The translations under genes and the position numbers were made by a program. A stretch of 64,000 nucleotides of DNA, taken from assembly GCA_965645245.1 (NCBI GenBank), contig OZ287085.1, positions 1,178,001 through 1,242,000 of the forward strand, given 5' to 3'. The notes under the pieces are model-generated. The model worked only from the letters and a program-made list of their open reading frames with translations. It searched no databases and was not told where the DNA came from. Source of the DNA: Massalongia carnosa. Lineage: Eukaryota. Positions 11,876-50,326 of the stretch are shown piece by piece (the first letter of the stretch is position 1; every line of letters begins with the position of its first letter).

Positions 11876-14800
11876 TGAAACGGGGAGACCTTCTCTCAAA
11901 AGGCATTCACTACTGGAAGACGGGATCCACAAGGGCTACACAACGTGATAGTCACAATAGAGGTACAAATATGGTAGGTCGGGTCAAAGGGTAGACTAAA
12001 TGCTACCCTTTTGAAGTGCTTGATCATTGATCTATATAGAATAGGACGATCCACAACCTAAACTCTTCTTCCGTACCATGCCCATACTACCTGGTATTTT
12101 CGGTCTCTGAAATACTTCGGTCACTGAAACACTTTGGTAGATGAGACTAGGCAGGCGAGCTAGGGGAGGTGAGGCGAGGCGAGGGGATACTTCGTGTACT
12201 ACGAAAACACCTCCATAATAAGTTAAGTCCCCACACTATGCCTAACTGGGTTAGGCGGGACCTTATTTTCTTGGTGGTTGTTTTGGCTGTACGTATCCCA
12301 CATAGCCAGATAGGCCAGTCTTACGTTCAACGAACGCATACTAGGCCTACCCTATTACAACTGCCTCCCTCCTATGGTCGAGTCCCATCCGAGACATGCA
12401 CTGCAAAAGATAGCCTCATGACGACCTAGGGTGCGTACCTAGACAACTCCATAAAAACCCTCTGACCCTTTGGGACAGAGGCAAAAAGGCATCGCTGTCA
12501 TGACGGGTACAGCCTAGCCGAATGATCCACTGCGCCGACGGTCCCCTTGTGAGTATGCAGCCCCTTCCGGCCATTAGGCACCGACTTACGTACTCACTGC
12601 CAATGCCGCAGCATTGGACTTCTTCGCCTGTCCCTTAGGACCAGACTCGCGGCTTCTTGCTCGTATGGACCTTCCCAGCCGCGCCAGCGTCATCTATACC
12701 TAACTGCCGACGACCCCTCTTGGGACGTCCTAGACGCAGCGGTGTTACCAAGTCGACCCCCACTTGCGAGCTTAAAGGCAAAGCCTCATCGACAGGGCCA
12801 GGCGGGGAGTCCGGCTGCAGCGCGGAGTACGTCGATTTCTTCGCTAGAGGAGGACGTGGAGGACCTGAATCGACTGGGGTTCCGCTTGCGGTGGATTTTG
12901 AACGATTATTCTATGGAATAACCTCACAATCTTGCGTAAATGCTTGATGGCCGCATACGGTTCCCAGCTATCCTCAGACTCAGGGTATCCTTTCCAATGG
13001 ATCAGATAATAAAGCCCTACAGGTCTCCCGTCCTCCGACTCCCTAGCATAGACAGCCGAATCTTGAATACTCTCGACCTCGTACTCCTTTGGTTCATTTT
13101 CATTGAACTCTATCTGCTCCGCTATTGACTCCCCCCTTCTTAGTGCCATTCTTCTCCAGAAGAGACACATGAAAGTCATCGTGGATTCGCCAACGCGGCG
13201 GCAGTTGGATGCGATAGGCTTGCTTGCTAATCGGCTCAATAACCTTGAATGGACCTAGGAACTTGTGTTCAAGCTTCCTATTCGTCTTCGTGTTAAAGTG
13301 CATGCCATCCAACCAAACTGACTCGCCGGGGCTGTACACACGATCCTTTGTAGCCTTGTTATGGTAGCGAGCTTGAGACACTTGTGCACCTCTAAGGTTT
13401 GCCTTGCACAGGTCCATAAGCTCTTTGAGTTCCGCGACCTCAGCCCCCGCCGCCCTAGACCGCGAACGGGGATCCAGCTCATCCTCATAACTCATCCGCG
13501 GATGATAACCGCAGTTCAACTCGAAAAGGAGTCAACCCGGTGCTAGAGTGGTTGGAGTTATTGGAGGCGAACTCAGCCATGGGCAGGTACTACACCCAGT
13601 TGTCCTGCTCGAATGAGACAAAGGACCGGAGGTACGCCTCCAACGTGCTATTCTGACGCTCTGTATGGCCGTCAGTTTGTGGGTGAAAAGCCGTGCTGAG
13701 ACTCCTCTTAATGCTAACAAAATAGCACAGCGAGGGCTAGAACTGCGATGTGAACAGGGAGCCACGGTCTATAACTATAGAGTCAGGGAGCCCATGGTAT
13801 CTCACGACCGAATCAATAATTACTTCCGCGAGGCCTTCAGCCGTCAGCATTTTCATCACTGCTTCTTAATGGACCATCTTCGCCAGGCAGTCAACAATGA
13901 CGAGGATGGAGTCATATCCTACTTCACGCCAGTCGCAACTGAGCGGGAGCCCTGTAATGAAGTCCATCGTAATGTCTTTCCACTTATGCGAGGGAATCGG
14001 CAGGGACTGGAGACTCCCATACGGCTTATGCCGCTGCGACTTCGACCTCATGCATACGTCACACGCATCCACGTACTTTTCAACGTCCACCTTGATAGTG
14101 TCCCAGTGGTATTTCCGAGTCAGCAACTCCTGGGTCTTTTCAATGCCTAAAGGCCCGCCAAGGGGTCATCATGATGGCGCGCCATTAGCTCAGTTCGTAA
14201 CGTCTCGGGTATATAAGGCTTGCCTTCATAATATAAGACATCCCCGGACTCCTTCCAGGGCTCGCCCGAAACACCAGAAAACGCATTAACTTCGGAGGTA
14301 GCTAGCCTCTTCCGTACAGCCTGGGCGCCCTTGTCTTCCGCAAGCAACTCAGGAAGACGTGGAAGTAATGAACCGATTGCAGTGTAGGGACCCTCTTCAG
14401 CCACGACTGCCCTTATAACAGCCCATGACTTGACGAGGTCCGGGACCACCGCAGTCCCACAGATAATCACCTCTAACATCATTTTCCTATACCCCTGCGA
14501 GTAGTCACGCTCGCGGGCTTCTTAGGTTGGCTTAATGCCTTGCAGGCCCGAATGGTCACGGGCTCATTCAACAGCAAAGAATCCTGCAAGCGGTGCAATA
14601 TCTGCCTATTCTCAACCATTAACTCATCGTCATCCGCCTCAGCCTAGGCCGGGCGAGATAAGGCGTCTGCGGGGTTGTGAGAACCCTGACGATAGTCAAT
14701 CCGAAAGTTATACCGGGAGAGCTCCTGCACCCAACGGATCTGGCGTCCGCCGAGTCGTTTGGTATCCATGAACCGTTTTAGGTTGTTGTGGTCGGTGAGA

Positions 14801-17800
14801 ACTAGGACGTCATGAGTGCTGCCTTCGAGATAATGCCTACAATGCCTAAAAGCCTCGACAATGGCCAGCAACTCCGCGTCATGCGTTTCATAGTTACGCT
14901 CCGCGGGAATCATCTTCCTAGAAAAGTAGGCTACTGGATGCCAATGATACTCATCGTCCTTTTGTGATAGTATCCCACCGATGGCATACCCAGATGCATC
15001 AGTCTCCACGCGTATATGTCGCTCCGCATCGAAATGCCGGAGGACTGGGGCCGTGACAAAGGCCTCCTTCAGTTGATCGAACGCTACTAACGCCTCAGCA
15101 GTCAGAAACGGGTCCGATTTCGGCATCTTAGGGCCCGTCGTCTTCAGCATCGCGGTCAAAGGCCTAGCGATCTTACTGAACCCCTTGATGAACCGGCGGT
15201 AAAAATTGGCAAAGCCTATAAAGACTTGAATATCGCGAACGCACTGGGGTCTAGGCCAGCTGCGCACGCTCTCTATCCTATCATTCTCCATCCGAATACC
15301 TTCAGGTGAAATAATATACCCAAGAAAGCGAACCTCTTTCTGACTGAAACGGCACTTCTGCAAATTGGCATACAGGCCGTGCTTTCGTAACTGTTCAAAC
15401 ACCCACTTAACCGCATCAGTATGCGCTGAACCAGTCTCTTCAGTGTAAATAAGAATATCTTCTAAATAGACAATGCAAAAAAAATCAAGTTTTTCAGCGA
15501 GTACCTTGTTAATCAAAGCTTGAAACGTCGCTGGTGCATTGGAAAGCCCAAAGGCATAACCTGATATTCGAAATGGCCATAGCGAGTTCGAAAGGCAGTC
15601 TTCCACTCGTCTCCCTTTGCTATTCGCACCCTATGGTACGCATGGATGAGATCAAGCTGGGTATACTCCTTCGCTCGGCCGAGCCTATCTAGGGCCTCGC
15701 CTACTAACGGCAGGGGGTAACGGTTTTTAATCGTTATATTGTTGAGACCCCTGTAGTCGACGCATAGCCGCAATCCTCCGCTGGGCTTCCTAATAAAGAG
15801 GATAGGCGCCCCCGCAGGAGAAGTCGACGGTCTGATGAACCCGTTATTGAGGTTGACTTCGATATAACCCCTTAGAGCTTCTAACTCCGTGGGACCGAGG
15901 CTATAGATAGGCCCATGAGGAGGCGACTTGCCCTCCTCTAGGACGATTCTGTGATCATCCGGGGTCAGCAACGGCAACTCGTCAGCTTTCTCCGCAGAGA
16001 ATACCCCTTCATAATCGGCGTATTCCACAGGGAGCTTGATCTCCTCTGTAGTCGAAATAGCCTGTAGGTTCATGCGCCTAGCGTCGTCCAACGCATCAAG
16101 AATAGCGGCTACTTGTACGACAAAGCAAGCGGACTTATCATCCAGAGCATCCTCTGCGAAGGTCTCCGGCTCAACTAACTCAATGCGCCTTTCGGTCGGC
16201 AAAGAAGTCGAGACAGAATAATCTCTCCAAGTGAGAGACCCTTCAGCGAAGTGGACGTCCGGGTTGCCGAGTTTCCGAAAAGGCATACTCAACACAACAT
16301 CATGAGAGACGTTTGCTATTAGAAAAGTCTCCTCGAACCAGCGAGTTCGTGCGAGCTTGTCATCAACAGAGAATTTGGCTAACACCATGCCATGGGTAGT
16401 CAACCGAGAGCCATCTATCGTAGCCGCACCCCAATTGGTATGCAGGGTCTGAAGACCTAAAGATCGAACCAACTCTGGATCGATAGCATTGAAGGGTTCT
16501 CTTTGCAAACGGGGCGCATGCTTGGCAATTGCCTCCCTAGGGTCAGTCACCGGTTTGGAAGTAACGCCGGCGACCGCTAGTTTTTTGGCTTGGGAGGATT
16601 GGTGCATTAGGTAGAGATATGCCCTTTTTTCACCGCATGAATAGTAGGTGACTTTGGCAGGAGGCTCTACGTTGGCGCCAGTGGCAGGCGTCTTGTTGGC
16701 AGAGGTGCCGGAAGATTCGGTAGGCTTGTTGTTACCCTTGCCACGTCTGTGACTCTTACCCTGAGTCTTCGACGATCGAGTTTGCGAGGCGTCCCTTGAC
16801 TTATCGCGAGGAGAGTCGCGATTTGAGGAGTTCTTGGTCGAGGTGTGCATATTAACGGATGCCTCGGCCTGCATTGCGAGAGCAACGAATTGCGAGTAGG
16901 TACTCGCATTGTCAACCATGTTGTAAAGGGCTGACTTAATCTCAGGACGCAGAGCATCTCGAGCGCGGCGAATCATGTCGGACTCGCGGGGGAAATGAAG
17001 GTCATACTCCTGAAGAACGGAGCACAATTGTTGAAGCTGTACGCTAAACGTGCGTACGTTGTCTCCAGGGCGCTGAACAAAACTAAAGAACTTTCCTCAG
17101 GTTTTGTCCACGAAGGTCTTCTCGTTGCCAAGGTCATCCCGGAGGACCTTTAAGAATTTGGCCCAGGGTGGGTCGTAATCAAGCGGCAATGTCTTGACGT
17201 ATTCTGACCATACATGGCCAACAGTCTCTCCGCGAAGAATGGAAGCCGCGAAAGAGACGGAGGAAGAATCATCGGCATGCGCCCGTGCAGTCTTGAAGTA
17301 CTCGTGACACTGACGAGCGAACTCATGCAGCTCCTTGTGACTACTTCCCTTATATATGTCAGGAACCTTGGGCTTCAGTAAGGGACGAGAGGCGCCGTCA
17401 TAACGGCGGCTTGAGTAGTCACGCGAAGGTGACCGGCGGCGATGGTAATGGCCGGGCGAGCGAGAGCGAGAGTCCCGGCAGGTATGATGACTATTCCGCC
17501 TGGATGACCTCTCAGGCGACTGGGGTGCCCGAGGAGATCGTGGGGCCGATCGAGATCGGCGAGCAGACCGAGAGGGAGTTCGGCGCTGGCCCTGGTTGAT
17601 TTGGTCCAGGGTAGACTGGATACCAGCCCATTGCTCGGCAGTCAGAGTCACTGTGGTAGCTGACGTGCCAGAGGAAGGACGGGCGGAGCCGTGCGGGCCG
17701 ACAGGAAGTGGGCCACTAGACGGCGGAGCACCAGATGCATTGGCTGAATTTAGCTGGAGCACCGGAGGTGCCGAGGAGAGAAGGATCTATTGAGGCCCTA

Positions 17801-17950: not shown

Positions 17951-18548
17951 AGAAAGCCTGTTTCGTCCATATTCCATACATCCAGCTCCGTTATTCCATT
18001 TTCCCTCATATCCCTTTCTAATTTGCTGAAATATTCAACCATATCGTTAACGTCGTGACTATTTTTTCAATCGACCGCGAGATGCTTCTGTTTTCGTACA
18101 TCAAACTCGGGATTTCGATCAAGAAATCGCTTCAGCCACTGATGACCAAGAGTACGATTCTCAAAACGAATCAAATAATTTGCAGCCCCCACGATCAATT
18201 TAGGTCGCGCACACATGTTGGCCTTGTCCAATCGCTCGATGTAGTCACGAACAGCTTGTTCTTGCTCATCCGTCAGAGCTTTGCTGATACCAGGTCGACT
18301 GCTTTTGGATTTGCCTCCATTCCATCGTTTTTGAACCGTACGAGGGGCAACGTCAAAAGCTATGGCTGCAGCTCGACAATTAGTATACAAACCATCGTGT
18401 AATGCGTCAATTGCACTGTCAAGTCGATCCTCGATAGCTGAATATGAATTGACCATTATGTTGTTGATTGTTGACATGTCGAAGTTGAGGTGTAAAATGT
18501 TGAAAATGCGTCTTTGAGCCGGTAGCGTCTTTGAGCCGGTAAGCACTG
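17951..18548 (-). mobile_element. Truncated pogo/Fot1-like transposon (left end plus transposase N-terminus)
   Basis: HTH-psq/CENP-B-like sequence (AAAIAFDVAPRTVQKR...LTDEQE...WLKRFLDR), then VWNMDETGF, after which it fuses to the gypsy-3 leader. 18-bp subterminal direct repeat GCGTCTTTGAGCCGGTA x2. Confidence 0.85.
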
Positions 18549-18686
18549 AGGGGTGCTCTCCGCATTCCGAAAGTGGTCTAGCACGATTACTACTTTTGCA
18601 TCCCCACGAAGCCCGGCCAAGATGATACAAGTCTCGTAATCTGGATGACAGGTCCTGTAAGGTTGGGTGACCTTTTATGGCTTTTA

Positions 18687-18760
18687 ACACAGGTAGCTAC
18701 TACACAAGTAGTTATTACACAGGTATTTACTACACAGATTGTTACTACACAGGTAGTACT
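18687..18760. repeat. 15-bp tandem repeat, 5 copies (ACACAGGTAGTTACT consensus)
   Basis: Directly visible. Confidence 0.8.
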
Positions 18761-19200
18761 ACCTTTCTCCACTTCCCACTGGCCTTGGATTGACTCGGCA
18801 CGACTCTAGTTCACGTCTAGAGCTCGGTGCTCTGGCCGCTAACCTGCGAGTCGTACATAAATTGAGGTTGGCAGACCCAGTGACAAGGCCAGTGACAAGG
18901 CTGACGGAGGGGGCAGCCACCACTTCAATGCTTTTCTTTATATCTAATTGCTTCTGATTATTATCTTTCTCTACGACCTTGGATATTGAGATCGACTCAC
19001 AGCAATACCTACTAGCTTACATCTCCATTTCCGCCATTGATTTCAACCGACGAAATAAAACGATATATCAGTCCCGTAGTATGTACAACAACATAGGCTA
19101 CGAGCGCAACCGCTTTTAATCGAACACTATCGATAAAGATTTGCGAAAACCAGGATGAAGATGACTTACTATCTCCGCGATTAGCAAGTGTGCTATCAGG

Positions 19201-22200
19201 ATGGCGTTGGTGCTCGCTGACGCAGCGCCGCTGAAGCCTGAAATCAAACTTGCACAAGCATTACATGACTACGAGTCGATCCTTTCGGATGAAGACAAGA
19301 GCCAACTCCACTCGCAAGGATTGCCAGATGCTACAGCTGCTATCAATCTCACGTCTCTCATTGATCGAAAATGCAGCAGGCACCGTACTCAATGTATGGG
19401 TCCAAGGCTGATTACATTCCTTGAATCAATTCAGCAATTCTCTCAGGTAGTTGATGTATTCATCAGCTCGAATCCTCAAGTCGCAGCATTAGTGTGGGGT
19501 GGGGTGAAACTGGCTTTACTCGTAATTCCTCTCCCCAGCTCAAGTATTAGGTTTGACTCTTGCAGGCTGCGAACAATTTTTCGTCTTACTTTGATCAGTT
19601 GTCAATCCTCCTCATGAATCTAGGAAGGCAATGCCCTCGAATGCATGGATTTAGATCCTTGTATCCTTCAATAGGACTGCAGAAAGCGCTCTATGACTAT
19701 TACGCTGCCATTATACGGCTTTGTAAGCACGTAACGCAGTCTCTTCGAAAGCCAGGTATATACGCTTGCTGCTCCTCTTCCCAACTCCCTTGTCCACTTT
19801 TGACGCAGTCCAAGAATTGACGTGTTTTCAGTATATATACAGTTGTCGAAGGCACTGATGGTCTCCTTTAAGGCGGAGTTCGGACCGTATGAAGGGGAAA
19901 TTGCACGATTATCTCAAGAAGTTCGAGATGAAGCATCTCTGGCATCGAAGCAAGCTCAAAAGCTGGAAAATGAGCTCCAAGCTAAAGAACGTTCAGATGC
20001 TAGGAAGCATCGGGAAATCGTGGTCAAATTCAGGTACGATTATCGCAAAAGTAAGGAAGAGGAAAGAAATCGGCGTTTGGAGACCGACCGCCGTAAATTA
20101 GAAAAAAAGAGATTGGAAGCCTTGAACGGCCTTTCGACTTATGATTATCAGAAGACGTACAGGCAGATTCGTAAAGAGTGCGTACCTGGTACATCAATGT
20201 GGATATGTGAGAGCCCAGAATTTCATGCATGGATATCTGGAACTCTGAAAACACTTAGGTTTACTGGCAGGTGTAAGTGTATAATGACTCCTAGTGCCCA
20301 GCAATGCTTAAGTGAAAATCAGTAGGATCAGGGAAATCGGTCACGAGGTTCAGTCCCTTATTAGCTTTCATGACGAAGTTTTACTAATGCAGTCCAAGCG
20401 CTTGTGTGGCTGCACATTTAATAGAGAAAGTATCGCCGAAAGATGTTACTGCCTTTTTTTTCTGCCGCTTCGATGAAACAGAATCTTTAAAAGCAAAGAC
20501 AATCGTTGGAAGTGTTGCCAGGCAATTGCTGAGTGATTTGCCTACAAAAGAGTTCTGCGCATTCAATCAGGAAAGTATCGATGAAACAAGCATCATTAGC
20601 GCTCTTGAAGTAATGTTGAGCCATACTCGCCAATACTTTATAGTACTGGATGGCTTGGACGAATGCGAAGAAGCGCAAGTCAAGGAGGTTGCTGGGATCT
20701 TCCACGGACTTTTGCTTTCCCCCCATTTGCATATAAAATTATTTTGGTCCAGTCGTCCAAACGTACTGAGTTGGCTACCAAGAAGATTCCTGACCCAGCA
20801 GCATATTGATTTAGAAACCGTTGAGAATCAAAGCAGAGTCGCTCACGATATTCGTAAATTCATCCTCGTCACACTCGAAGAGTGGCTCGAAGGCGAGACG
20901 CCGGAACTGCAAATTGGTGATCCAACCCTGATAATAACGATTCTAGACCGTCTTGAAAAGGAAGCTCAGGGAATGTATGATATCCTTGTGTCATAAATAA
21001 TAGTGCAGGGCTTACCTCAAAAGGTTCTTATGGGTCAAATTTCAACTCCAAGAGTTGCGTGAGAAAAAATCGGATAGTCTGATACTTGCTGCGTTGAGAA
21101 ATCTTCCACGCGATCTTCCGGAGACGTTTAAAAGAATCCTCTCTAAATATACCGAAGCTGACGACATTGATATCGGAAGGCAAATATTTCGCTGGGTCAG
21201 TGTAGCGAAACGTCCGCTTACGGTCGAAGAACTTCGGGAAGCTATAGGGACCATACCACTACAAGAAGCATGGAATGATAATATATATATCAATGACATG
21301 AAGAAAGCGGTGGCATGTTGCGGTAATCTCGTCTTCATAGAAGAAGAACAGCAAACGGTACACTTTACGCATGGTAGCGTCAAACAATATTTGCTTTCAA
21401 GAGCCGTCCAGGATTCGCTGAGCAAATATTACGTGGATCTGAAAAAAGCCGATGAAGATGCAGGTGCTATCTGTGTCACATATCTCAATTTCCCCGTGTT
21501 TAATAGGCAAATGGCGCATAAAACCGGCAAAAGCATCACCACTACCGGTATCACGTCCATGATCATAAAGAATAGCCTACCGCCTGGAAACTTATCCAAT
21601 AAAATTGCTCTTAAGTTACTGAGACGAAATGATAAGTCTAGCAAGTCAGTCCATCGTCTATTAGAGGAAGCAGGGGGTGATACCGAAGTTTGCCGCAAGG
21701 ATAATATTTTCAGACAATACTCCTTTCGACGTTACGCAAACCAATTCTGGCTTGAACATACTAAGCAGGGAATGAGTCCTGATTCTGGGAAGCTGTGGGG
21801 ACTGTGGTGCAATTTGATAAGGGACGCTAGTTGGCGTGACACTCTGTCTAGCATACCATGGACATTGAAGGACTGGAAGAAGCGCACTACTAAAGTCATA
21901 CAATGGGTAGTAGAACAGAACCACTGTTCGTTAGCTTGGCTGATCATAGACCCTGACGTAAGGCTTACACAGCAGAATCTTCTAAATCTCGTCAAAGGCG
22001 CTGCAGAGAGAGGACATGCACATTTGATAGAGATTATTCTGGGCTCAGAAGATATTTCGCAATTCATTCTAGATTCAGGACTACAATCAGCAGCTGAAGG
22101 TGGCCATCTAGATGTGGTAGAGAGATTGCTTCAAGAGAAGGCTGACGTTAATGCTGCTGCTGCTGTATTCAGTGGCAGGACTGCACTTCAAGCAGCAGCT

Positions 22201-24249
22201 GGAGGTGGTCATCTAGATGTGGTAGAGAGATTGCTTCAAGAGAAGGCTGACGTTAATGCTGCTGCTGCTGCATCCTATGGCAGAACTGCACTTCAAGCAG
22301 CAGCTGAAGGTGGCCATCTAGATGTGGTAGAGAGATTGCCTCAAGAGAAGGCTGACGTTAATGCTGCTGCTGCTGCATCCCGTGGCAGAACTGCACTTCA
22401 AGCAGCAGCTGAAGGTGGCCATCTAGATGTGGTAGAGAGATTGCTTCAAAAGAAGGCTGACGTTAATGCTGCTGCTGCTGCATCCTATGGCAGAACTGCA
22501 CTTCAAGCAGCAGCTGAAGGTGGCCATCTAGATGTGGTGGAGAGATTGCTTCAAGAAAAGGTTGACGTTAATGCTGCTGCTGCTGTATTCAGTGGCAGGA
22601 CTGCACTTCAAGCAGCAGCTGGAGGTGATCATCTAGATGTAGTGAAGAGATTGCTTCAAGACAAGGCTGACGTTAATGCTGCTGCTGCTGCATTCATTGG
22701 CAGAACTGCACTTCAAGCAGCAGCTGGAGGTGGCCATCTGGATGTGGTAGAGAGATTGCTTCAAGAGAAGGCTGACGTTAATGCTGCTGCTGCTGCATCC
22801 TATGGCAGAACTGCACTTCAAGCAGCAGCTGAAGGTGGCCATCAAGATGTGGTAGAGAGATTGCTTCAAGAGAAGGCTGACGTTAATGCTGCTGCTGCTG
22901 AATACCATGGCAGAACTGCACTTCGAGCAGCAGCTGGAGGTGGTCATCTAGATGTAGTGAAGAGATTGCTTCAAGAGAAGGCTGACGTTAATGCTGCTGC
23001 TGCTGGATTCTTTGGCAGAACTGCACTTCAAGCAGCAGCTGAAGGTGGCCATCTAGATGTGGTAGAGAGATTGCTTCAAGAGAAGGCTGACGTTAATGCT
23101 GCTGCTGCTGCATCCTATGGCAGAACTGCACTTCAAGCAGCAGCTGGAGGTGGCCATCTGGATGTGGTAGAGAGATTGCTTCAAGAGAAGGCTGACGTTA
23201 ATGCTGCTGCTGCTGAAGACAATGGCAGAACTGCACTTCAAGCAGCAGCTGAAGGTGGCCATCTGGATGTGGTAGAGAGATTGCTTCAAGAGAAGGCTGA
23301 CGTTAATGCTGCTGCTGCTGAATACCATGGCAGAACTGCACTTCGAGCAGCAGCTGGAGGTGGTCATCTAGATGTAGTGAAGAGATTGCTTCAAGAGAAG
23401 GCTGACGTTAATGCTGCTGCTGCTGGATTCTTTGGCAGAACTGCACTTCGAGCAGCAGCTGGAGGTGGTCATCTAGATGTAGTGAAGAGATTGCTTCAAG
23501 AGAAGGCTGACGTTAATGCTGCTGCTGCTGCATCCTATGGCAGAACTGCACTTCAAGCAGCAGCTGAAGGTGGCCATCTAGATGTGGTAGAGAGATTGCT
23601 TCAAGAGAAGGCTGACGTTAATGCTGCTGCTGCTAAATACGATGGCAGAACTGCACTTCGAGCAGCAGCTGAAGGTGGCCATCTAGATGTGGTAGAGAGA
23701 TTGCTTCAAGAGAAGGCTGACGTTAATGCTGCTGCTGCTGAAGACAATGGCAGAACTGCACTTCAAGCAGCAGCTGAAGGTGGCCATCTGGATGTGGTAG
23801 AGAGATTGCTTCAAGAGAAGGCTGACGTTAATGCTGCTGCTGCTGCATCCTATGGCAGAACTGCACTTCAAGCAGCAGCTGGAGGTGGCCATCTGGATGT
23901 GGTAGAGAGATTGCTTCAAGAGAAGGCTGACGTTAATGCTGCTGCTGCTACATCCTATAGCAGAACTGCACTTCAAGCAGCAGCTGAAGGTGGCCATCTG
24001 GATGTGGTAGAGAGATTGCTTCAAGAGAAGGCTGACGTTAATGCTGCTGCTGCTGAATACCATGGCAGAACTGCACTTCGAGCAGCAGCTGAAGGTGGCC
24101 ATCTAGATGTGGTAGAGAGATTGCTTCAAGAGAAGGCTGACGTTAATGCTGCTGCTGCTGCATCCTATGGCAGAACTGCACTTCAAGCAGCAGCTGAAGG
24201 TGGCCATCTAGATGTGGTAGAGAGACTGCGTGCTGCAGGTGCGAAATAG
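19201..24249 (+). CDS. Fungal NLR-like STAND protein: helical N-terminal domain, NACHT, winged helix, about 21 ankyrin repeats
   Basis: Exons 19201-19521, 19566-19755, 19832-20272, 20323-20347, 20399-20974 and 21024-24249 splice in frame. Walker A GRLGSGKS, Walker B FIVLDGLDEC, SSR sensor, GMFLWV, LPRDLPETF, HFTHGSVKQYL, then GRTALQAAAEGGHLDVVERLL repeats. Confidence 0.93.
22081..24240 (+). repeat. Coding tandem array: 20 full plus 1 partial 105-bp ankyrin units with very high internal identity
   Basis: Period of exactly 105 nt from 22081 to 24181. Confidence 0.97.
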
Positions 24250-26283
24250 TTGCTTTAACCAAAGGCATCACTTTTCAAGATCTCCCTCTCGATAAGTCCG
24301 TGGTCTGGCTTTCTCGAGTTTTGATCGATCAGAGTATTTCATACATTGATTACGATCCGTAGTATCTATCGTACATGTCAATCTTCCAATCGTTCCCCCT
24401 TCTCCGGGAGGCGAATAACAACATCACCTTCTGAGCATCTTTTAAGCCAGTCTCTTGTTTACATTTTTCTCTTTATGTATGATAGGTTGCTATACTTTAA
24501 GCTCTTGCCGTCTGATTCATCTTCTTGTCGGATCTTCCTGTCTAAATGACTTGAGGTCGCTGCTTTAGTTGCTTTACTAGTGATGCTAGTCATTTTGATC
24601 TTGAAGGAAGGCAGGAGGGAGAGTCGAGTTGCTGAATGCCGTGAAGATGGTTTTTACGGGCGACGGCGAAGATTTGAATATTAATTAGAGTATACGGGGT
24701 CGTATTGATGGGAAGAAAGAGGGGTGAAATAAAACATGGAGAGGGCGAAGTGTTATCATCTTCTAAGCAATAACTTCAATGTCATTTTCTTCTGCTATCT
24801 AGACTGAAACCCTTCATTCTAATCATATTCGTATGTTCGATTTTCATCTGTCCTCATCTCATGTAATAATAATAGTAAGATGTTGATCATCATCTTCAGC
24901 AAAGCAATATTATGTGAAACACTAGTTTTCGGCAAGACAGCGCGCTCAAGTCTGTTCTGAACGACAAGAGTAATGACGGATGATGAAGCTGGAAAGTGTC
25001 ATCAAGTGTAACCTGCAGAACGGATAAGATATGACAAGGATTTCGTCAGCCTTAATCACGACGTTTCAGTTTCTTGGTGTCTCTTCAGTTCTGCAGCAAT
25101 CCTGAAGCCGCGAAACGGGCATCGTTCACTCAGGACTTCTTCTATTGAATCAAGCATTGCTTTCAGGACCTTTTCGAGCAACTGCATTATATCTCATTGC
25201 CAACACTGCTGCTTGTAGACACCTGCCGTCTGAAAAGGCGGGTATCACTTCGACCTCCCGTTGACGCTCTCAAGCGCATTATCAGGGTTTTGCTCTCTCT
25301 TACGGCCGGTCGAAAGAATAGACGAAGAGCCGATAGACGGAGAGCCGATAGACGATTTGAAGTGCAAGATGATTTAGCAGACGCGTATCTGCTGATGTCT
25401 GACTCAGCCCCCGTTTAATCTGAAGAAAGTAGTAAGTAAAAGTGACGGTCTTTAACATGGCGTTTCAAAAAGGCTTCTTCGTAACGTCAGATCAACGCCT
25501 TTTCTCTGTGGGACGCAGCTTAGCTTCTTTTCATTGTTATTCCTTTGAAGCATTTCCTCTTTGCCGTCTGCTTCCGACAATTTGTCATCCCACTGAGCGC
25601 TTCTGTCCCAGGATATTGAGGGATTACTCTCGCTATCACAGCAAGCTTCGTTATTAGACTGGTAACTTGATTCGCAGGCTATGAACGAGCGGTAGAAATC
25701 GCAAGTGAAGGGGTGATATACGGCGTCAGGAATTCATTCTTTCGATATAGGATGGAACTTTGGAAAAAAGATGACCTATCAGTATTGATTCGTCGAATGG
25801 GGGTGCGGATCTTACCCAGCTTTTAAACCAGCCGCGGAAGTCGGTGGAGTGCTCAGCGAACTCCGCTCTCTGCATTGCTTCGTATCCTGCTCCATAGAAG
25901 GCGAGTGGTTGCTCGCATGGATTCATGTACTGCTGCTGCTAGCCTCTCGCTCAGCATTCTGAGAGTCGCCGTGCTCAGGATTCTGATTTCCGAAATCCAT
26001 CGAACATTCGTCGTTCCTGAATATCGGCTCCTCTGCGGGTTGTCGACATGACGTTCAGAGAAAGAGAAAGCTAATATTCCCACTCGTTTATATTTAAAAA
26101 TAGAATAATTTATTTTCAGCGCCTGCTCCAATGACTTTTAACGTAATTCACCTGATTTCGGAACACCCGCTTATTCGGAACTAACGAAACCACGAAACTT
26201 ACTTTCAATCATTATCTCTTCTACAACTTATTGAAGAAAACCCTAAAACTGATTTAATAAGAAAGGGTATTATAATTATTATA

Positions 26284-28960
26284 GAGTACGGATACGTGGA
26301 CACCCCTTTGGTTACCTGGACACCCCCTGAGGTTACCTGGACACCCCCTGAGGTTACCTGGACACCCCCCAGTGATACACGGACACCCCCTTCCTAGAAT
26401 AGGTAAGAATCAAGGGTTCAGCCCCCTCACTTACCCACTTCGGGGTAAGCTCCCGGGCGCATATCGGGGAAATTTTTTCCTTCACCTTTTGAAAGTGGTC
26501 GGGAATTTCTGAAACGAAGTCGATTGGCACTGTCTTTGCAAATCAGACTCTGATTCTAGAAACTAAGCCTCATTTGGTCTAATTAATGATGATAACCTCC
26601 TCATCTCCGCTTGCTGTCGCTGTCCCCCCCCCCCTTGTCGCCGTCCCCGCCTCCGAGTCATTTGTAGTCAGCCTATCTGCCAATCCCCTTGTTATAACCC
26701 CTCCTCTAGCCCTACCTCCCCGTCCCCATCCCGATCCCCGTCCCCGTCTGCCTCGTCCACGACCAGGTGCCGGGTCCGCTCGATGAACGGCTGATTGATC
26801 TGCATCCGGGTCCACCCGCTCGAAAAGGGAAGGATCACGATTAGTAGATGCCTCGAATGCTTGCTGTCTTCTATTCAAAGTCTCCGCACCTGGAGGTCTG
26901 CCCCTTGGTCTAGCAACTTCGGGTGCCTGAACCCGAAGATAAGGATTATCAATAGCCACACGGGCTGTCCTACCAAACCTCCAATGAGGATGAATATCTT
27001 CCAATAGCAACTTTCCCCCCCCATCCCCATACAATCGTTCCTGAATCTTATGACTGCACGGAAGACCCATGGTTAAACTGAACGTTCCAGTACAGGCCGG
27101 AATAGCTGTTGGTTGACCAACCAAACGTTCGTATTGAGGCATTATCTTTCTCAAAGCATAGGAAGTGACGTATGGACTGATTTCCTGAAAGATAGGTTTG
27201 CGAATATCCATAGGTAGTCGCACCTTCGCTTCATCAAGACGAATCAGATGATTGTGAAGTTCATTGATCAATAGAAGATTGATTCCGTCCACCACCGTCT
27301 TAAGATCTCCAGATGATGACCCTAGCTGTCGCTTAAGTACTGCATGCCCACCTTCACCTCGAGAGGTAGTGGTGGTTTCGAAATGAGTAATCATACTGGT
27401 ATAGCACTTGACAAAACGATGTCGGAAGGGTATGTAGATGTCGTTTAGATATTCCACACATTGATCCTGACCCTGATACTGAATCCTGAATCGCTCCCAT
27501 GACTCCAAAAACTCTGGTTCTGACGAGGCATAAACGACCGTTTTCCAGTCAGCGAAGAAGGAGTCCCACACCTCTTTGGTATCGAAGCTCTTCTTGCAAT
27601 TGGTCAGGACGTTATTATTGATGTGCCATAAGCAAAGCAGATGATTGGTTGCGGGGAAAACATCCTCAATTCCAGCTATCAGACTCTTTTCCATGTCCGT
27701 GACTATGACGATCGGGTTAGGAAGCATCATCCCATCATACATACCTCGCAATTGCTGCAACATCCAGGTATAATCAGACGTGGCTTCCTTGGCCATGAAG
27801 CAAAATGCCACATAGAAGTTGGTATGTAGGGCGGTTTGACCACTGATGATCAATAAGGGCATCTTATATCTGTTGGTTTGTAAGTGGCGTCCATCACCAA
27901 CACCTCGTAATTCGTCTTCAATAGTCGTTGAGAACAGCCCTTAATAAAGAATAAATGAGTTATTCTATCTAGATCATCCTTTTGCATCTGATACGTCCAA
28001 TCTCCTTGATCCAGCTCTCGGATTAATGCCTGAACCGGAGTCAATGGGCCGAGTGTCTCGCGACGAAGCTGTGCTTTGACGTTGTAGATATCCCGAGGTT
28101 TGAATAAGGGATTGATGATGTAGGGATTTTCTGGATCGTCAAAATTGATTCCCGTCGTCGGATCAGCAACACGAAGACTAGATAAAATCTTGAAAGGGGC
28201 TGTTTGCACGATCAGAGCTCGGGAAATCTCACTTTTAACCTCTTTCGTCATCGCCAATTTCCTCAACGCTGGATGAGCACCAGCGAGGGTAGAAGCATGA
28301 TTATGAGTCGATTTGACCACCTCCAAAAACCAGATACCACTGTCGTTTTCTCGTGTGGCCACACAAGAGAAAGGGCATTCAATTCGTCGGCTACCCGTAT
28401 GTTGCCGATCCTGACCTCTTGGTCCGTCGGTTTTTCTTCCTCGATCACATATCAGCCATGCCTTTCTTGTTACCTTAAGTTTCGACTTCTTGGTTCGACC
28501 CAAAACGACTGCGTATCCTTGACGACCAGCATGCTCATTGACTCGTAGAACCAGGTCTTCCAGACTTTCAAAACTTTGTCCATCCTCGGGGGGTGCAAGT
28601 CCGCCAGGGGGTAGAGGGCCAGGTGGTCGGGGTGGAGTAGCTGGTTCATCTTCGAGGGGTGCAAGTCCGTCAGGAGGTGGGGCAGGAGGTGGGGGGTCAG
28701 GAGGCGGTGCAGACATGATAAAGTGACAAAATGTTGGTGATAATGATGTTTACGAAGTGCCAAAATGTTGGTGTTTACGGTTGAAAAAAAAATTCCCGAG
28801 GTGCACCCTCGGGAGCTTACCCCGAAGTGGGTAAGTGAGGGGGCTGAACCCTTGATTCTTACCTATTCTAGGAAGGGGGTGTCCGTGTATCACTGGGGGG
28901 TGTCCAGGTAACCTCAGGGGGTGTCCAGGTAGCCAAAGGGGTGTCCACGTATCCGTACTC
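26284..28960 (-). mobile_element. Mutator-like element (MULE-1)
   Basis: About 150-170-bp TIRs starting GAGTACGGATACGTGGACACCCC, with 8-bp TSD TTATTATA. Confidence 0.95.
26579..28716 (-). pseudogene. MULE transposase (FAR1-like N-terminus, DDE, SWIM-like GLPCSH) with one 1-nt frameshift near 27880
   Basis: MDATYK-(TNRYK)-MPLL is restored by adding one A. Also IVTDME, LLCLWHI and GEGGH motifs. Confidence 0.92.
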
Positions 28961-30546
28961 TTATTATAATAGCTGATTATCGATAAATTACACCGCTGAA
29001 ATGGCTTCTTTCCGGCAGTTTCGAGTTACAAAATCGGGATTGCGTACTACCTTGAAAGACGAGGTTAGAGAACGTTTAAAATAGGCAGTTAAGGTCTATG
29101 AGAAGGCAGAAGGGTCGTGATCTATTACGCAAGCTGCTTGACTTCATGCGGGGTACCGAAAACAACATTGTATCACAGTCGCCAGGACCAGGTATCGTAC
29201 GTTACTTCAAAAGCAGAGGTTAACGCCCGAGGAGGAGGGATCTCTTCAGAGCTGGGTTAACTAGAGCTACTAGACTCCGCCTTTGACAAAATATCAGCTA
29301 AGCCTTATACGGACGATGACACTCTACCTAGCGCTAGTACTCTTATTCAAACGCGTTATCTTTCAGGCCAAATATCACCAATATCAGGAAACATAGTACA
29401 AGTCTCAGAGATTTAGGAGTTTATATTACTATTTCGTCATCAGACTCTTGATTCCTCTAAGCTTACTCTACAAAAAAACCTTAAAGCAGCTAGGCTTGCT
29501 ATAACTGATCGTATTGTCTTGAATCGTACTAATACGGAGCTTTTAACAGCCAATACAAGAAAAAAACAACGAGCTCAACGTACGGGCACTCAATACGATT
29601 TTCAAGGGACTCGCGTATTGAGTTTAGAAGATGTGGAGAAAAGAAGACAACCAGCTGAAAATAAGAAAAAGGAGAAAGAGGCTGGATCACAGGTAGGGAA
29701 AGAAAAACAGAACGATCGACTATTTTTTCAGGGTATCTAAAGACCTAATGAGATTTTAACCCGACCTAATATATGTGCCTGATCTTGTAACATCTTGATC
29801 TTTACTTAAAAATAAGAAACGAGACGATTCTATTTTCAAAATGCTTTTCACGACCTTATTCAGATTACACCTCATATTATAAGGAGACAGTTGAGGGTGA
29901 CCTAGGGTTTAAAAAAACTACTCGAAATAAAGGAAAAGGTATACTATGAAAGAAAAATATCACTAGGTTGGTACAAGGTGATGTGGAAATAGTAGGAAAG
30001 GGGGAGAAGTAGGAAGTTTTAGAGGTTCGGGTTAGCTCGCGCGGTCGTGTCATCTGTAACACTTGTAAAATGTAGCTCTACAAGCTTATGCTAGCTATAT
30101 ATATTCACTAGAACCTGTTCATCAATTCCCGAGTACATGTGCTAGAAATTTTGCGGATGCGGCGGTGATAAAAAATTACTAAGGTTGGTATCAAGTTTGT
30201 TAGTTCCGAATAAGCGGGTGTTCCGAATAGCGGTAAATTACGTTACATCTGCCTTTAATTTATCAAAGAGATCGAAAGACTCGTTAAATAACGAGATGAG
30301 CATCTTCAATATCTCAGTCAAATCATAATCTTGGGGTCTTCCGCTTGATCGATTGCTTAATTCAAAAGCTTGACGACTTTCGTGTTGTTCATTAATAGCT
30401 AATCTTGAGGCAGTTTAGTGGTAGCAGTGGCGGAGTTCTTGGCACCAATTAGGATAAAAATAATGTACCCCCACCAGGGACCGCCGCTTTTAACTAGCCA
30501 ACGGGGCGAGCACCTTGTCTGTAATACGGATGGCGCTAGAAGGATA

Positions 30547-31884
30547 CAGTCCCGTGTCAAAAGTTTCCGACTCTACCCGCGATTTTCGTGATTTCGCGTT
30601 TTAACCCCTCCAACCCATCAACTTTGACCTCATCATTTCACCATGCCACGCACTCCGTTGGCTTCAATTTCTGGTAATAAGCCTCGTAATACCAAATTGA
30701 ATCAATGTTAAAGAGGTATGATTATTGGAGCCCAGGCGTTGGGGCATGCACCGGCCGAAATTGCAAAGACATATAATGTGCCTCGAACCACCGTCATTTA
30801 CACTCTTCAAAAGCACTCAGAACGCAACAACGAAAAGTCCAAATCGCGATCAGGTCGGCCTGGAATATTTTCGGATCGCGATAGAAGACGTATCATCAAC
30901 TTTGCACGAATCAATCCACGCATCACCTATGCGCAGCTGCGTACGGAGGCCGGGGTGCAATGCAGTCGATCCACTCTCTATCGGACGCTCAAAGACTACG
31001 GTATAACAAACTGGCTGGCTAAAAAGCGGCCTTTATTGACGCCCGAGGTGGCAAAGAAGAGATTAGAATGGTGCTTGCTTCGGCGTGAGTAGACTTCTGA
31101 GCAATGGTCAAAAATTATATGGTCAGACGAGTGTTCGGTGGAAAAGGGGTCAGGAAAATAGCGTCAATGGATGTTCAGATTTCCGGAGGAAAAATGAAAA
31201 AAACCTATGATACAACCGTACGCCAAAGGCAAGGAGGTCAAGGTTATGGTATGGGGGGCTTTTTGTATGAGAGGAAGGTCAGATCTTTACAAATTGGCCC
31301 GCGATTTCGAAGCAAAGAAGATGGGGCACTCCGCGAATTCATATTTGGAATTATTGAACGATAATCTGCTTGAAATTTGGGAACCGGGCTTCATTTTCGT
31401 ACAGGATAATGCACCGATTCATACTGCCAAAAAGGTGAAGAAATGGTTCGATGAAAACGGTATAACAATCATCGATTGGCCTCCTTATTCTCCTGATTTG
31501 AACCCCGTCGAGCACGTTTGGTATGTGCTCAAACAGCTCTTTTATCAAGTCAATCCGGACATCGATTCGGTGACTGGTAGTGATGATAAGGTCCGCGAGG
31601 TACTTTGGAAAGCGTTGGAAGAAGCATAGGCCTTGATAGATGAGGAAATGTTGAGAAGTTTAATAGAGAGCATGGAAAGGAGGATTAAAGCTTGCATCCA
31701 ATCGAAAGGATAGTATACGAAATATTAAAAATATATTTCTCATCCCAAATTCCTTGCTAGAATGTATGTAATCATCGTACCAAGTTTCAAGGCATAAAAT
31801 AAAAACTTGGTGGTTGATAATTCAAAGCAGTGGGGGGGGTAAAAAGTTGATGGGGAGCTGTCGGAAACTTTTGACCTAGTACTG
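30547..31884 (+). mobile_element. Tc1/mariner transposon (DD34E), Tc1-1
   Basis: 25-bp imperfect TIRs CAGT...GTCAAAAGTTTCCGAC with TA TSD. Confidence 0.93.
30643..31728 (+). pseudogene. Tc1 DD34E transposase with about 6 in-frame stops
   Basis: WSDE, QDNAPIH-34-SPDLNPVE. Stops fall mostly at expected Trp/Gln codons and the frame is otherwise preserved. Confidence 0.92.
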
Positions 31885-33628
31885 TACGTGATCGCCTATG
31901 GCGGTTGCGGGATTAACTAGCATGAGCCAGGCCGTAGTACTTAGTCGCACAGCCGTCGAGGTTGACACGACGCCACCTTGCCACACAACTCCGAATCCTA
32001 CGTTCTAGACTGCTTACAGATCAAACACCTGTCGAGGCCGTGGTGGTAGATTGCCATGGAGTAAGGCGAACTCCTGTGGAGAAGCCGTGAACTCTATATA
32101 GGATCTACTGGCCTACTCGGAGCTACTCGATCTCTTGATGGATCAAGAGTTGTAGCAGGAGGCACCGCTAGCTGGACGCAGCTTGAGCTCGGCCTCCCCG
32201 GTGTAAACTTCAGCTTCAACCTTTATTGTTACGTTGGTAGTGATGTCGGCTGAATCAACCTACATGACCTTGTGGTCTGGACCTTGTGTCTAGAGGCAGG
32301 TCCGCAGTGTAGGTAGAGATTCAGTCGGAGGTAACCTTCCATCGCTACGTTGGTAGTGGTGACGGCGAAATGAAGCTACATAGCCTCGGCGTCTAGACTT
32401 TATGTTTAGAGGCGGGCTAGCAATGTAGTGAGGGATCTAGCCGGAGGTAGAAGTGTTCTACCTTGCAAGGGAAGGTCTAGAAGGCTGCTCGAGGCTGACT
32501 AGATGATCCAGCGAACGCCGAGTTCGTAGATGGATCCTGAGGGATGGTTAGATGTAAGGCGATAAGGTCAGAAGTGGGTTGCAAGGCTCCTAAGTTTCCA
32601 AGGCTTCCCAAGGCTATAGGCTTGGGGTGAGTAGGATAAATACCAGAACGAATCCTGTAGTATTCGTTAGCAATTAGTCTTTATTCTATGAACAACCTAC
32701 GTTTGGGTCTCGGACGAGATCTCTTGGTCTAAGCACTTCCACATCCATTAGTTCTTTGGATCACGTATACTCTCGGAGACTAGCACGTAGTAGCTATCTT
32801 CCTCCTCTCACGCTGAGCATTTCCCTTTCGAGATCAGTGTCGCTCGTGATTAGCTTACTGGTCTCGTAGCCCATTACATTGTCCTTGATGATCAGTAAAG
32901 TTCAGCATTTTTTTGGAAACGCACAGATATCCGTGGAGACTTCTGACGCGCATTTCTTGACAGCTTCTTATTAATGATCTTTGCCTGTGACTATCATGGT
33001 AACGAAATCTTCTGCGACTGGCCTGCAAGACAACCTGGCAGGGTCGATCGCAATTCGAATAACAGTCGATCTTGGGTGTGGTCGGTCGACTATATTGTAC
33101 AGCCTTTTTCTATTTATTTTATGTGGAGGTTGCATCAGATCAAGGCGAACAAGGCGCATGCATTTTCAGCCTTGTTTCAGTACGAATATAAGCCTTCAGC
33201 TGGGAAACTCTTTTCCCAACTGAACTTTTCCTTAGGAAATCAGAACATCTAACTTTGTGGAATTATATGTCAGGGACGAATCCTATTTCAACATCTCAAA
33301 TTTGGTCGAAGTTATTTCTAGAAGTTCTTTGATACCTTCCCGGATAGCTCGATCGATCTTTAGATTTTGTAGACAAAGTTATTATCGCTCTGTTTGACAA
33401 AGTTGATTGCCCGAGCTCATGCCGCAGACCTCATGCTCAAGGATTGTTTATCAGAGGACGATAAATACAATGACAACTCGCAGGATTCTTTATCCTATAG
33501 CCCCACCTCGATCAGGCCACGTTTACGCCGCGCAACAAAAACACTTTAACTTCTTTGATTGCAAGACGAATAATGTTCAACAAGTTGTTATCGAGCTTTG
33601 ACGTTCAGTTGATATTATTCAATATAAG

Positions 33629-49162: not shown

Positions 49163-50326
49163 CTAGATGGAGGTGCCCGGCGGCGCTCCGGATCGATGCC
49201 CTGGTTGACCTGTACGCCCAATGGAATGCCCAATTGAGTAGGGGTAGGAGTTTGTAGGATTCGTCTCGGCGACGACAGCACGTGGGACTGCTAGAGGGAT
49301 GCCTTTTTGAAAACTGAGGTTCAAATTGAATAGTGAGGCCTGGGACGTCTGAAAGTATAGCTGAAACGCGTTTGATGACCATCTTCCGAGTCTCTGAATA
49401 CTCTCATCCAGCATCCCGTGGTCGGCGGCGTGTTGTGCTGCTCCTTTTCTGAAGCTGTGTCCCGAGTATGCCGAGTCGTTGATGCCGACGGCTATCAGTC
49501 TCTTTTTCAGGGATGCTATGACGGAGGCTCTGGTGAATGCGGTGCCGAGACGAAAAAGCGGGGATGTAGATGGCTGAGGATCATTTCTGAAAAGACGCCG
49601 TAGTGCTGTCACGGGGCAAGTGCTCTCATTGGTCGCTGCCAGCACTATCTGAACTCCTGAGTGATTTGTGTCTGTTTTGCTTCTTTTGAGACGTAATGTC
49701 GCGTATTGATCGTTCTCGGCGAATGAGATGTCACCTCGTGTAGGTTTCAATCTCTGAAAAGATGTCTTCTTACGATCAGCGACAGTGTAGGTGATTTCCC
49801 CGAGTCTGAGGAACCCTGCCCATGCAACTTTGAATGTCGCGTCGATGTTGAGGTCTTCGGCCGAATGAGCGGGAATACTGGTGATTTTTGTCAGTAATTC
49901 TTTTGAAATGGGTAGGCGTCTTCTTTTTGTCTGAGAAAAGATCCTTTTTCCCCCTTTCAGCATCAATTGAAGTCTCGGCCCCTCGAATGGGGTGAGGCCG
50001 TATCCTCGGTCTACATGGTATGATCTGAGGCCGGCGAGGTAGCTCGCTGCCGTCTCTGGTTTTATCTTTCCCTGCTTGGGTGTGCCGCCCCCGTATAGTC
50101 GACCGGCTAGCCATTCCTCGAGGGACTCGGTTGTTGCAGGCCACGACGTGCGTCCCGTCGTCGCGCAGAATGCCTCGTATGAGTCGATCGCCGTCCCGTA
50201 CCCTTTTCTCGTGTCCGCCGAGTGTCCGTGCCAGACGAGACGTTTTACCAGGGCTGACCCTGGTGTGGAGGATAGGTAGGTGGAGGGAGGTTCATCGAAT
50301 TGTATGGGTTCTGCCAATGAGGGCAA
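49163..50326 (-). CDS. Tyrosine recombinase
   Basis: FLRLGEI, KRSKTD, GHSFRKG, LGRWSS...LY catalytic set. Overlaps the 3' end of RT. Confidence 0.95.
   Translation of the reverse strand: MPSLAEPIQFDEPPSTYLSSTPGSALVKRLVWHGHSADTRKGYGTAIDSYEAFCATTGRTSWPATTESLEEWLAGRLYGGGTPKQGKIKPETAASYLAGLRSYHVDRGYGLTPFEGPRLQLMLKGGKRIFSQTKRRRLPISKELLTKITSIPAHSAEDLNIDATFKVAWAGFLRLGEITYTVADRKKTSFQRLKPTRGDISFAENDQYATLRLKRSKTDTNHSGVQIVLAATNESTCPVTALRRLFRNDPQPSTSPLFRLGTAFTRASVIASLKKRLIAVGINDSAYSGHSFRKGAAQHAADHGMLDESIQRLGRWSSNAFQLYFQTSQASLFNLNLSFQKGIPLAVPRAVVAETNPTNSYPYSIGHSIGRTGQPGHRSGAPPGTSI

Follow-up and report, generated by a model that had tools for sequence, protein, structure and literature searches.

A high-identity ankyrin array with a hypervariable three-residue cassette in a predicted NOD-like receptor gene of Massalongia carnosa

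The DNA analysed here, referred to as the window, is a stretch of 64,000 nucleotides from Massalongia carnosa (GenBank assembly GCA_965645245.1, contig OZ287085.1, positions 1,178,001 to 1,242,000 of the forward strand), and all positions below are counted from its first letter. It contains a predicted gene for a fungal NOD-like receptor (NLR) whose C-terminal part is an array of near-identical ankyrin (ANK) repeats. The repeats differ mainly in one cassette of three adjacent codons. We conclude that the array is very probably the ligand-sensing ankyrin solenoid of an NLR of the type DUF7708 / NACHT / winged helix / ANK, in which the three loop residues encoded by the cassette, and to a lesser extent positions 9 and 13 of helix 1, have been diversified and are held diverse by selection.

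The gene and its domains

Four homologous proteins (P0042, P0008, P0002 and P0067) were aligned by tblastn onto positions 18501-22300, where they matched as colinear blocks with the frame shifting over short gaps. GT..AG introns were picked so as to reproduce the junction peptides of the homologues. The resulting gene model and the features within it are as follows.

19201..24249, + strand: NLR gene, six exons, 1592 codons and a stop, without an in-frame stop in the model
19201..19521, + strand: exon 1, N-terminal DUF7708, possibly Goodbye-like (77.6% identity to P0067)
19566..19755, + strand: exon 2, remainder of DUF7708 (70% identity to P0067 residues 106-169; flanking introns 19522-19565 and 19756-19831)
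19832..20272, + strand: exon 3, charged helical linker and beginning of the NACHT module, from homologue alignment
20323..20347, + strand: exon 4, 25-nt micro-exon with the Walker A P-loop GSGKS (introns 20273-20322 and 20348-20398)
20399..20974, + strand: exon 5, NACHT / NPHP3_N NTPase core with Walker B DGLDE
21024..24249, + strand: exon 6, winged helix, linker and the entire ankyrin domain
21172..21411, + strand: GPIID_WHD winged helix (Pfam E 4.5e-07, 30.7 bits, cut-off 27; residues 40-119 of the open reading frame 21055..24249)
21970..22164, + strand: N-terminal cap and degenerate ankyrin repeats ahead of the first cassette (helix pairs 6-19/22-29 and 36-49/52-60 of the structure model)
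22080..24229, + strand: ankyrin array of high internal conservation, 20.5 units of 105 bp (35 residues)
22165..24168, + strand: twenty 9-nt cassettes, at 22165+105k to 22173+105k with k = 0..19, each immediately 5' of a G-R-T-A-L repeat start
24181..24249, + strand: terminal half unit, made up of the helix pair alone and serving as C-terminal cap, then the stop

The N-terminal domain scored 22.3 bits for DUF7708 on the open reading frame (ORF) at 19201-19617, below the Pfam cut-off of 25, and 88.4 bits in the spliced homologue P0067, where the match covers profile positions 4-144 of 146; Goodbye appeared as a sub-threshold match in homologue P0042 (E 0.0068). At the P-loop micro-exon the homologues align GSGKSV, and the flanking introns are 50 and 51 bp, the second being 45 bp if the possible alternative acceptor at 20392 is used. 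The ORF at 20406-20996 matched NPHP3_N with 56.9 bits (cut-off 24.8) and NACHT with 26.4 bits, slightly below the cut-off of 26.7 that NACHT passes in P0067 at 29.1 bits. Removal of the intron 20975-21023 brings back the family consensus GMFLWV. The ankyrin array sits in a single open frame on the + strand (21055..24249, 1064 amino acids), over which the Pfam Ank profile matched in 21 stretches (E 1.8e-152); the repeats total about 22, of which 20.5 are near-identical 35-residue units.

In the six-exon model the NLR gene is apparently intact, and the array would form the C-terminal sensor of an NLR with the order DUF7708, NACHT, winged helix and ankyrin repeats. An NLR gene with ankyrin repeats had been proposed in a preliminary description of this DNA, and the NPHP3_N/NACHT and winged-helix matches, the Ank stretches and the DUF7708 N-terminus of the spliced homologues all agree with that proposal. 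The open-access collection searched yielded no paper on DUF7708 by name and none on the unit motif TALQAAA.

Variation, selection and exchange in the array

Tandem Repeats Finder (TRF) reported the array with 93% matches, 0% indels and a score of 3663. Cut from 22081 in steps of 105, it falls into 20 complete units of 35 codons, followed by a partial one of 22 codons (24181-24246) and the stop, and the cassette occupies codons 29-31 of each unit. The cassettes read, in order, VFS ASY ASR ASY VFS AFI ASY EYH GFF ASY EDN EYH GFF ASY KYD EDN ASY TSY EYH ASY, so that the preliminary account of twenty 105-bp units, near-identical apart from one 9-nt cassette, was reproduced item for item. Nine variants are present: ASY seven times, EYH three times, VFS, GFF and EDN twice each, and ASR, AFI, KYD and TSY once each.

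Variation was found in 23 of the 105 nucleotide columns of the unit. In the cassette all six columns at codon positions 1-2 vary (2-4 bases each) and none of the three at position 3, every one of the nine variants having the pattern NNA-NNC-NNT. In the scaffold, that is, the rest of the unit, 10 of 64 columns at codon positions 1-2 vary, and 7 of 32 third-position columns show synonymous variation. Two binary switches in helix 1, both named in the preliminary description, were counted as Q/R 15/5 and E/G 12/8; a third, E/K (16/4), absent from that list, lies in helix 2, the outer helix. Eight more replacements are each confined to one unit. The residue at position 9, where Q and R alternate, is linked to the cassette, with R after EYH in three of three cases, after KYD in one of one and after GFF in one of two.

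The mean pairwise identity of 19 units over 665 amino acids is 87.6% for amino acids (lowest pair 77.1%) and 93.4% for nucleotides, and 93.7% for the amino acids of the scaffold alone. Repeats of high internal conservation (HIC) are defined as at least 85% identical across a minimum of 100 amino acids, and the array therefore has the high internal conservation that the preliminary description had named for repeats of fungal NLRs. Units 8 and 12, 10 and 17, and 11 and 16 are identical pairs. No clean multi-unit higher-order period emerged from the mean mismatch at offsets of 1-11 units. A 53-nt core of the unit, allowed up to 3 mismatches, matched 16 times, always within the array, and never in 100 shuffles. 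Elsewhere in the 64-kb window the unit gave only chance matches (E above 2 with blastn, at least 0.5 with tblastn).

No two neighbouring units share a cassette (P = 0.027 by shuffling). This lack of identical neighbours could come from instability of identical neighbours, from selection or from assembly collapse; in the related protein P0002, unlike the present array, five GSN units stand in a row. As a separate observation, ASY returns every 2-4 units (P = 0.020 for no adjacency together with a largest gap of at most 4, a test picked post hoc). On the minus strand, three antisense ORFs of 104-139 amino acids cross the array between 22633 and 24102; because they repeat along with the array, they are most likely repeat by-products and not genes.

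To quantify replacement and synonymous change, we used Nei-Gojobori (NG86) partition estimates, which are not formal or recombination-aware site models, on the 16 unique units among 19; the 20th unit, when counted from its cassette, extends into the C-terminal cap and was left out. The cassette had a dN of 0.621 and a dS of 0, and the scaffold a dN of 0.030 and a dS of 0.079, that is, an omega of 0.38. The preliminary description had named unit alignment and dN/dS as a check, and in this partition estimate cassette dN far exceeds scaffold dS, with a ratio of 7.9. Counted as minimum changes, the cassette has 12 non-synonymous and 0 synonymous changes, against 10 and 7 over the 96 scaffold columns (Fisher p = 0.023). 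Per codon, the three cassette codons have the highest pN of the 35 (0.40, 0.37 and 0.46, with pS 0), followed by position 13 (0.216), position 9 (0.170) and position 21 (0.132). The scaffold is under purifying selection.

The preliminary description had also stressed the fixed wobble bases of the cassette. The pattern holds in all nine variants, but it is no signal by itself, because the chance of no third-position change in three codons is about (25/32)^3 = 0.48, and cassette third positions vary in 10 of 10 related arrays, with 1-4 extra states. The informative signal is the concentration of replacement changes at codon positions 1-2 of the cassette. The related arrays come from metagenome contigs, in which 454 stretches matched a search pattern, 327 encoded relatives and 80 were kept, representing 78 loci, all of which were run through TRF; the ten analysed at the DNA level (L001-L010) are those among L001-L041 with at least 5 in-frame units at exact spacing. 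Eight of the ten had a cassette dN greater than their scaffold dS (ratios over all ten 0.7-6.8). In the metagenome contigs an exact search with a 42-mer of the unit gave 0 matches, and none of the 78 loci, which were reached by the protein route, has the same unit.

Concerted evolution keeps the units similar, through unequal crossing-over and gene conversion whose breakpoints fall within units. Compared among themselves, the units of the array have a scaffold identity of 0.93; compared with those of 13 other arrays, 0.64-0.87. In the four-gamete test, all four combinations were seen for 11 of the 28 informative pairs of scaffold sites. Two scaffold haplotypes can be told apart (GGC, GTG, GTA, GAG and GGT, GTA, GTG, AAG), and the EYH and GFF cassettes are each found on both. 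Because the nearest relatives by NACHT and linker (P0008, P0042, P0023, P0043 and P0073) have an internal repeat conservation of just 0.62-0.76, the high conservation here is a lineage-specific state and not clade inheritance. The pattern fits the report, in the available text of PMC13449251, that HIC arises repeatedly among low-conservation relatives.

Structure, relatives and genomic setting

The residues encoded by 21955-23130 (residue 1 at position 21955) were modelled by AlphaFold2 with a 37-sequence alignment, giving a pLDDT of 92.8 and a pTM of 0.88; a single-sequence model, which had a pLDDT of 67.3 and built the loop as a helix, was discarded. Each modelled unit has two helices, of 8 and 9 residues, and a loop of 16 residues. 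The cassette is predicted to lie in this loop, three residues ahead of helix 1, with a beta-bridge at its middle residue, and the Q/R and E/G sites are predicted to fall in helix 1. The confident model thus agrees with the preliminary placement of the cassette in the finger loop before helix 1. The top Foldseek matches are designed ankyrin repeat proteins (DARPins) and the solenoids of ankyrin-R/B, with E down to 1e-22. The canonical ankyrin repeat has 33 residues; the unit here has 35, with an alanine-rich loop, compared with 33 positions in the Pfam Ank profile.

The best match in the PDB by both sequence and fold is the DARPin 6mol_A (E 1.8e-105 by sequence, 1e-22 by fold). DARPins share with the array identical consensus scaffold repeats and a variety limited to the beta-turn and the helix-1 surface; they are designed, whereas the present array is natural and has 35-residue units. 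In the phmmer alignment to DARPins, which places the two extra residues of the unit in the loop, the second and third cassette residues and the E/G site at position 13 coincide with positions that differ between DARPin repeats. Binz et al., in 2003, are said to have randomised positions 2, 3, 5, 13, 14 and 33 of the DARPin repeat. Positions 5 and 14 are invariant here (R and G), and position 9, a fixed His in DARPins, varies between Q and R. The preliminary equation of loop and helix 1 with the DARPin variable surface agrees with the alignment for the second and third cassette residues and the E/G site. The array also matches PDB 6ne1 chain B, a 'Pfs, NACHT and Ankyrin domain protein', at E 2.6e-39; judging by the alignment of 129 query residues with 122 of its own, this chain appears to have 33-residue repeats, and may be the nearest solved natural NLR-type ankyrin domain.

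In its repeat arithmetic the array is also reminiscent of TAL effectors (TALEs), with their near-identical units of about 34-35 residues, DNA repeats of about 100 bp, terminal half repeat and 2-3 adjacent variable residues. The fold differs, the present units being ankyrin repeats by AlphaFold2 and Foldseek. A shared cassette alphabet of the TALE type was not found, each of the nine cassette types occurring in 0-3 of 72 related proteins. Taken over all pairs of proteins, cassette sharing came to 268, whereas shuffling gave a mean of 363, a null that is biased upward because shuffling creates more cassette types; only the direct counts were therefore used.

A search of the protein collection gave 574 matches at E of at most 1e-10 among 8000 scored candidates, and the best 120 of the 574 were taken as the homologue set. 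Among the matches listed, all named ones are fungal, mostly Pezizomycotina, and the closest over 342 non-repeat residues have 69-73% identity, the named ones being the lichen-forming Lecanora helva and Wetmoreana brouardii, which makes an origin in a lichen-forming Lecanoromycete probable. The same 35-residue unit occurs in ten related proteins (from Penicillium, Bisporella, Tricladium, Sphaerosporella, Elaphomyces, Morchella, Geoglossum and others), again with three hypervariable residues right before the G-R-T-A-L start and frequent E/G alternation at position 13. In the 43 of the best 120 homologues that have at least 6 exactly spaced units, the cassette positions have within-protein entropies that average 1.69, 1.87 and 1.72 bits, compared with at most 0.89 elsewhere, the highest other values being 0.89 at position 35, which adjoins the cassette, and 0.86 at position 13. 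The cassette is exactly the set of the top three entropy positions in 17 of the 43. The Q/R switch is particular to the present array, since position 9 is nearly invariant in the family (entropy 0.07). Family cassette residues are enriched in G, E, D, K, Y, S and N.

The gene belongs to a class that is already in the literature, the HIC ANK NLRs of Dyrka et al. 2014 (PMC4986451). According to the available text of that paper, high internal conservation is found in about 10% of the ANK repeat domains that are annotated in fungal NLRs; HIC ANK repeats have five positively selected positions, mostly on the concave face, together with repeat-number polymorphism; and a 21-repeat Chaetomium protein has the same layout. 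With Podospora anserina Pa_3_8560 and Pa_2_8180 and the 21-repeat PNP_UDP/NACHT/ANK protein of Chaetomium globosum, the present gene shares NACHT and ANK, repeats more than 85% identical, a number of about 20 repeats, and a few hypervariable beta-hairpin/loop and inner-helix positions under positive selection. It also shares with them the signature of concerted evolution and the association with transposable elements, for which the available part of PMC13449251 ties HIC NLRs to transposable elements, input from repeat-induced point mutation (RIP) and repeat exchange, and describes NACHT with HIC ANK as a Dikarya feature. The Chaetomium globosum protein begins with PNP_UDP, whereas the N-terminus here is DUF7708; RIP is invoked in Podospora, whereas none is clearly seen around the present gene.

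HET-D as well as HET-E and HET-R of Podospora anserina, the HNWD proteins, are likewise NACHT NLRs with near-identical tandem repeats, few hypervariable ligand-contact positions and repeat shuffling, as far as the available portions of PMC12222747 and PMC13449251 describe them. They carry a WD40 beta-propeller of 42-residue units, a HET effector and the ligand HET-C, whereas the present protein has an open ankyrin solenoid and a DUF7708 N-terminus; with an ANK sensor and this N-terminus, it was not placed among HNWD, which combine a WD40 sensor with a HET effector. For lichen-forming fungi, the open-access literature searched lists NLRs, and its available text gave no report on their repeat arrays; the Xanthoria preprint (10.1101/2024.08.16.608140) lists 23 NLR-like genes and, in the part available, does not treat repeat conservation.

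The window is rich in transposons. Three long pol ORFs of Ty3/gypsy type (1287, 1422 and 1266 amino acids) lie in it, together with further broken reverse-transcriptase fragments, copia-type gag/pol, a MULE transposase, a Tc5-type helix-turn-helix and a piggyBac-like (DDE_Tnp_1_7) transposase. The ORFs of the transposon field lie at the following positions.

3106-3909, 5669-10884, 14644-17027, 18067-18690, 26579-28716, 42776-47044, 50245-51948, 55411-59211 and 61724-63999: transposon-field ORFs

The neighbours of the NLR gene are, on one side, a gypsy element that is broken and accompanied by a Tc5 remnant and, on the other side, a MULE; the gene is the sole evident host gene between 14 kb and 29 kb of the window. 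Over sixteen 4-kb blocks, the RIP index (CpA+TpG)/(ApC+GpT) ranged from 1.03 to 1.83 and TpA/ApT from 0.56 to 0.93. The usual thresholds for RIP are a TpA/ApT of at least 0.89 together with a second index of at most 1.03. One block (28001-32000, with 0.89 and 1.03) lies on both thresholds and no block clearly passes them, and RIP is therefore not supported. The long transposon ORFs of the window remain open. The scaffold variants comprise 14 transitions and 2 transversions, with A>G and T>C as common as C>T/G>A relative to the majority base; as a source of the mutations, RIP is thus unsupported, the indices giving no clear signature and the scaffold changes being unbiased toward the RIP direction. 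With the array excluded, no repeat pairs of at least 800 bp were found inside the window. Downstream of the gene there are two short tandem repeats, of 15 bp x 2.5 (25318-25355) and 21 bp x 4.8 (26293-26391).

Weighing the readings

Under the NLR paradigm and the literature on the family, the loop tips and inner helices of the array would line a concave groove and set the ligand bound, and the gain, loss and shuffling of units would rapidly yield new groove surfaces. Ligand binding would free the NACHT module to oligomerise and to activate the N-terminal domain, which would end probably in a cell-death or defence response. It is by analogy with the family that we infer a non-self receptor. The naturally diversifying, modular receptor of the preliminary description is borne out in its diversifying part by the HIC repeats and by a cassette dN far above scaffold dS; its 'code' survives as a metaphor only, no shared alphabet having been found.

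Several points weigh against this reading of the array as a sensor diversified by selection. The contingency p is no lower than 0.023. Gene conversion lowers scaffold dS and therefore inflates the ratio of dN to dS, and with a cassette dS of 0 no ratio can be formed inside the cassette. Two of the ten related arrays have a ratio of 1 or below (L004 1.0, L010 0.7). Single units carry replacements at strongly conserved core positions, namely Leu24 to Pro (unit at 22270), Gly15 to Asp (22585) and Leu17 to Gln (22795), which may be destabilising variants, mild or early decay, or sequencing errors. The place of the cassette on the concave face is predicted from secondary structure and the DARPin alignment. 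To these are added an N-terminal domain, DUF7708, without known cell-death activity, a longest exact repeat inside the array of 184 bp, and the statement, in the available text of PMC12222747, that short-read assemblies drop or invent HIC repeats.

The last two of these points bear on the possibility that the array is real while its unit number and order and its cassette series are partly products of assembly. The absence of adjacent shared cassettes is also what the collapse of identical neighbours would give. On the other side, the array has no indels and its frame is open over 2.1 kb, 16 of the 19 units are unique, and a contiguous 64 kb of transposon-rich sequence suggests long reads. Such an artefact in the details is unlikely.

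That the protein is not an immune sensor, and is instead a STAND ATPase scaffold whose solenoid binds an endogenous partner in a housekeeping or developmental role, we regard as improbable. In favour of such a role, DUF7708 is not known to have cell-death activity, and most fungal NLRs are without known function, according to the available part of PMC13449251. But groove diversification, concerted evolution, a transposon-rich setting and HIC that is patchy among close relatives are the reported signatures of non-self-recognition NLRs, and they are not expected of a conserved housekeeping interaction.

A neutral origin appears highly improbable. It would have a young tandem expansion leave three loop residues unconstrained, so that their variety reflects relaxed selection and not selection for diversity. 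Loops tolerate substitution, conserved core positions are replaced in the three units named above, and the array shows more redundancy than related ones, its 20 units having 9 distinct cassettes against a family median of 0.75 distinct per unit. However, neutral sites cannot outpace the synonymous rate, and a cassette dN of 0.62 is 7.9 times scaffold dS; gene conversion that homogenises the scaffold would wipe out neutral cassette differences too; hypervariability of the cassette positions recurs across 43 independent arrays; and the scaffold omega of 0.38 indicates purifying selection.

A more specific mode of binding was also considered, in which the solenoid would read an extended polymer repeat by repeat, such as an unfolded peptide lying along the groove in the manner of the ankyrin-B/R complexes. 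If so, one ligand position would be set by each three-residue cassette together with the helix-1 residue linked to it, the cassette series would be a real modular code, and the sequence recognised would change as units are shuffled. The length of about 22 repeats, the regular single-site variation per unit and the linkage of cassette and position 9 are consistent with this idea, but a cassette alphabet private to this gene runs counter to it, and we give it very little credence.

In targeted mutagenesis the cassette would be written by a dedicated mechanism, either templated by a retroelement, as in diversity-generating retroelements (DGRs), or a form of local hypermutation. This reading would account for changes being limited to codon positions 1-2 and could point to the reverse transcriptases in the neighbourhood and to 7 transversions and 5 transitions in the cassette against 2 and 14 in the scaffold, but it is hardly credible: those reverse transcriptases belong to long-terminal-repeat (LTR) retrotransposon pol genes with integrase and RNase H, all 16 core matches lie inside the array with no template-like unit copy elsewhere in the window, identical cassettes recur letter for letter in a copy-like way (ASY seven times), and the missing wobble variation is expected by chance and is not shared by the related arrays. 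The fixed third positions resemble the AAY codon logic known from the variable regions of DGRs; within the 64-kb window, with LTR-retrotransposon pol as the nearby reverse transcriptases and no unit template outside the array, the locus was not assigned to the DGRs.

Taken as a diversified NLR sensor, the array offers an example and not a principle. It extends the HIC ANK class to an NLR of the DUF7708 type, and what is seen here suggests that such an array persists without a visible RIP signature. It is also a very clean natural library of ankyrin binders, with about 20 scaffold-identical units whose variety is centred on three loop residues. If its ligand is found, the array could bear on how such fungi distinguish partners from intruders.

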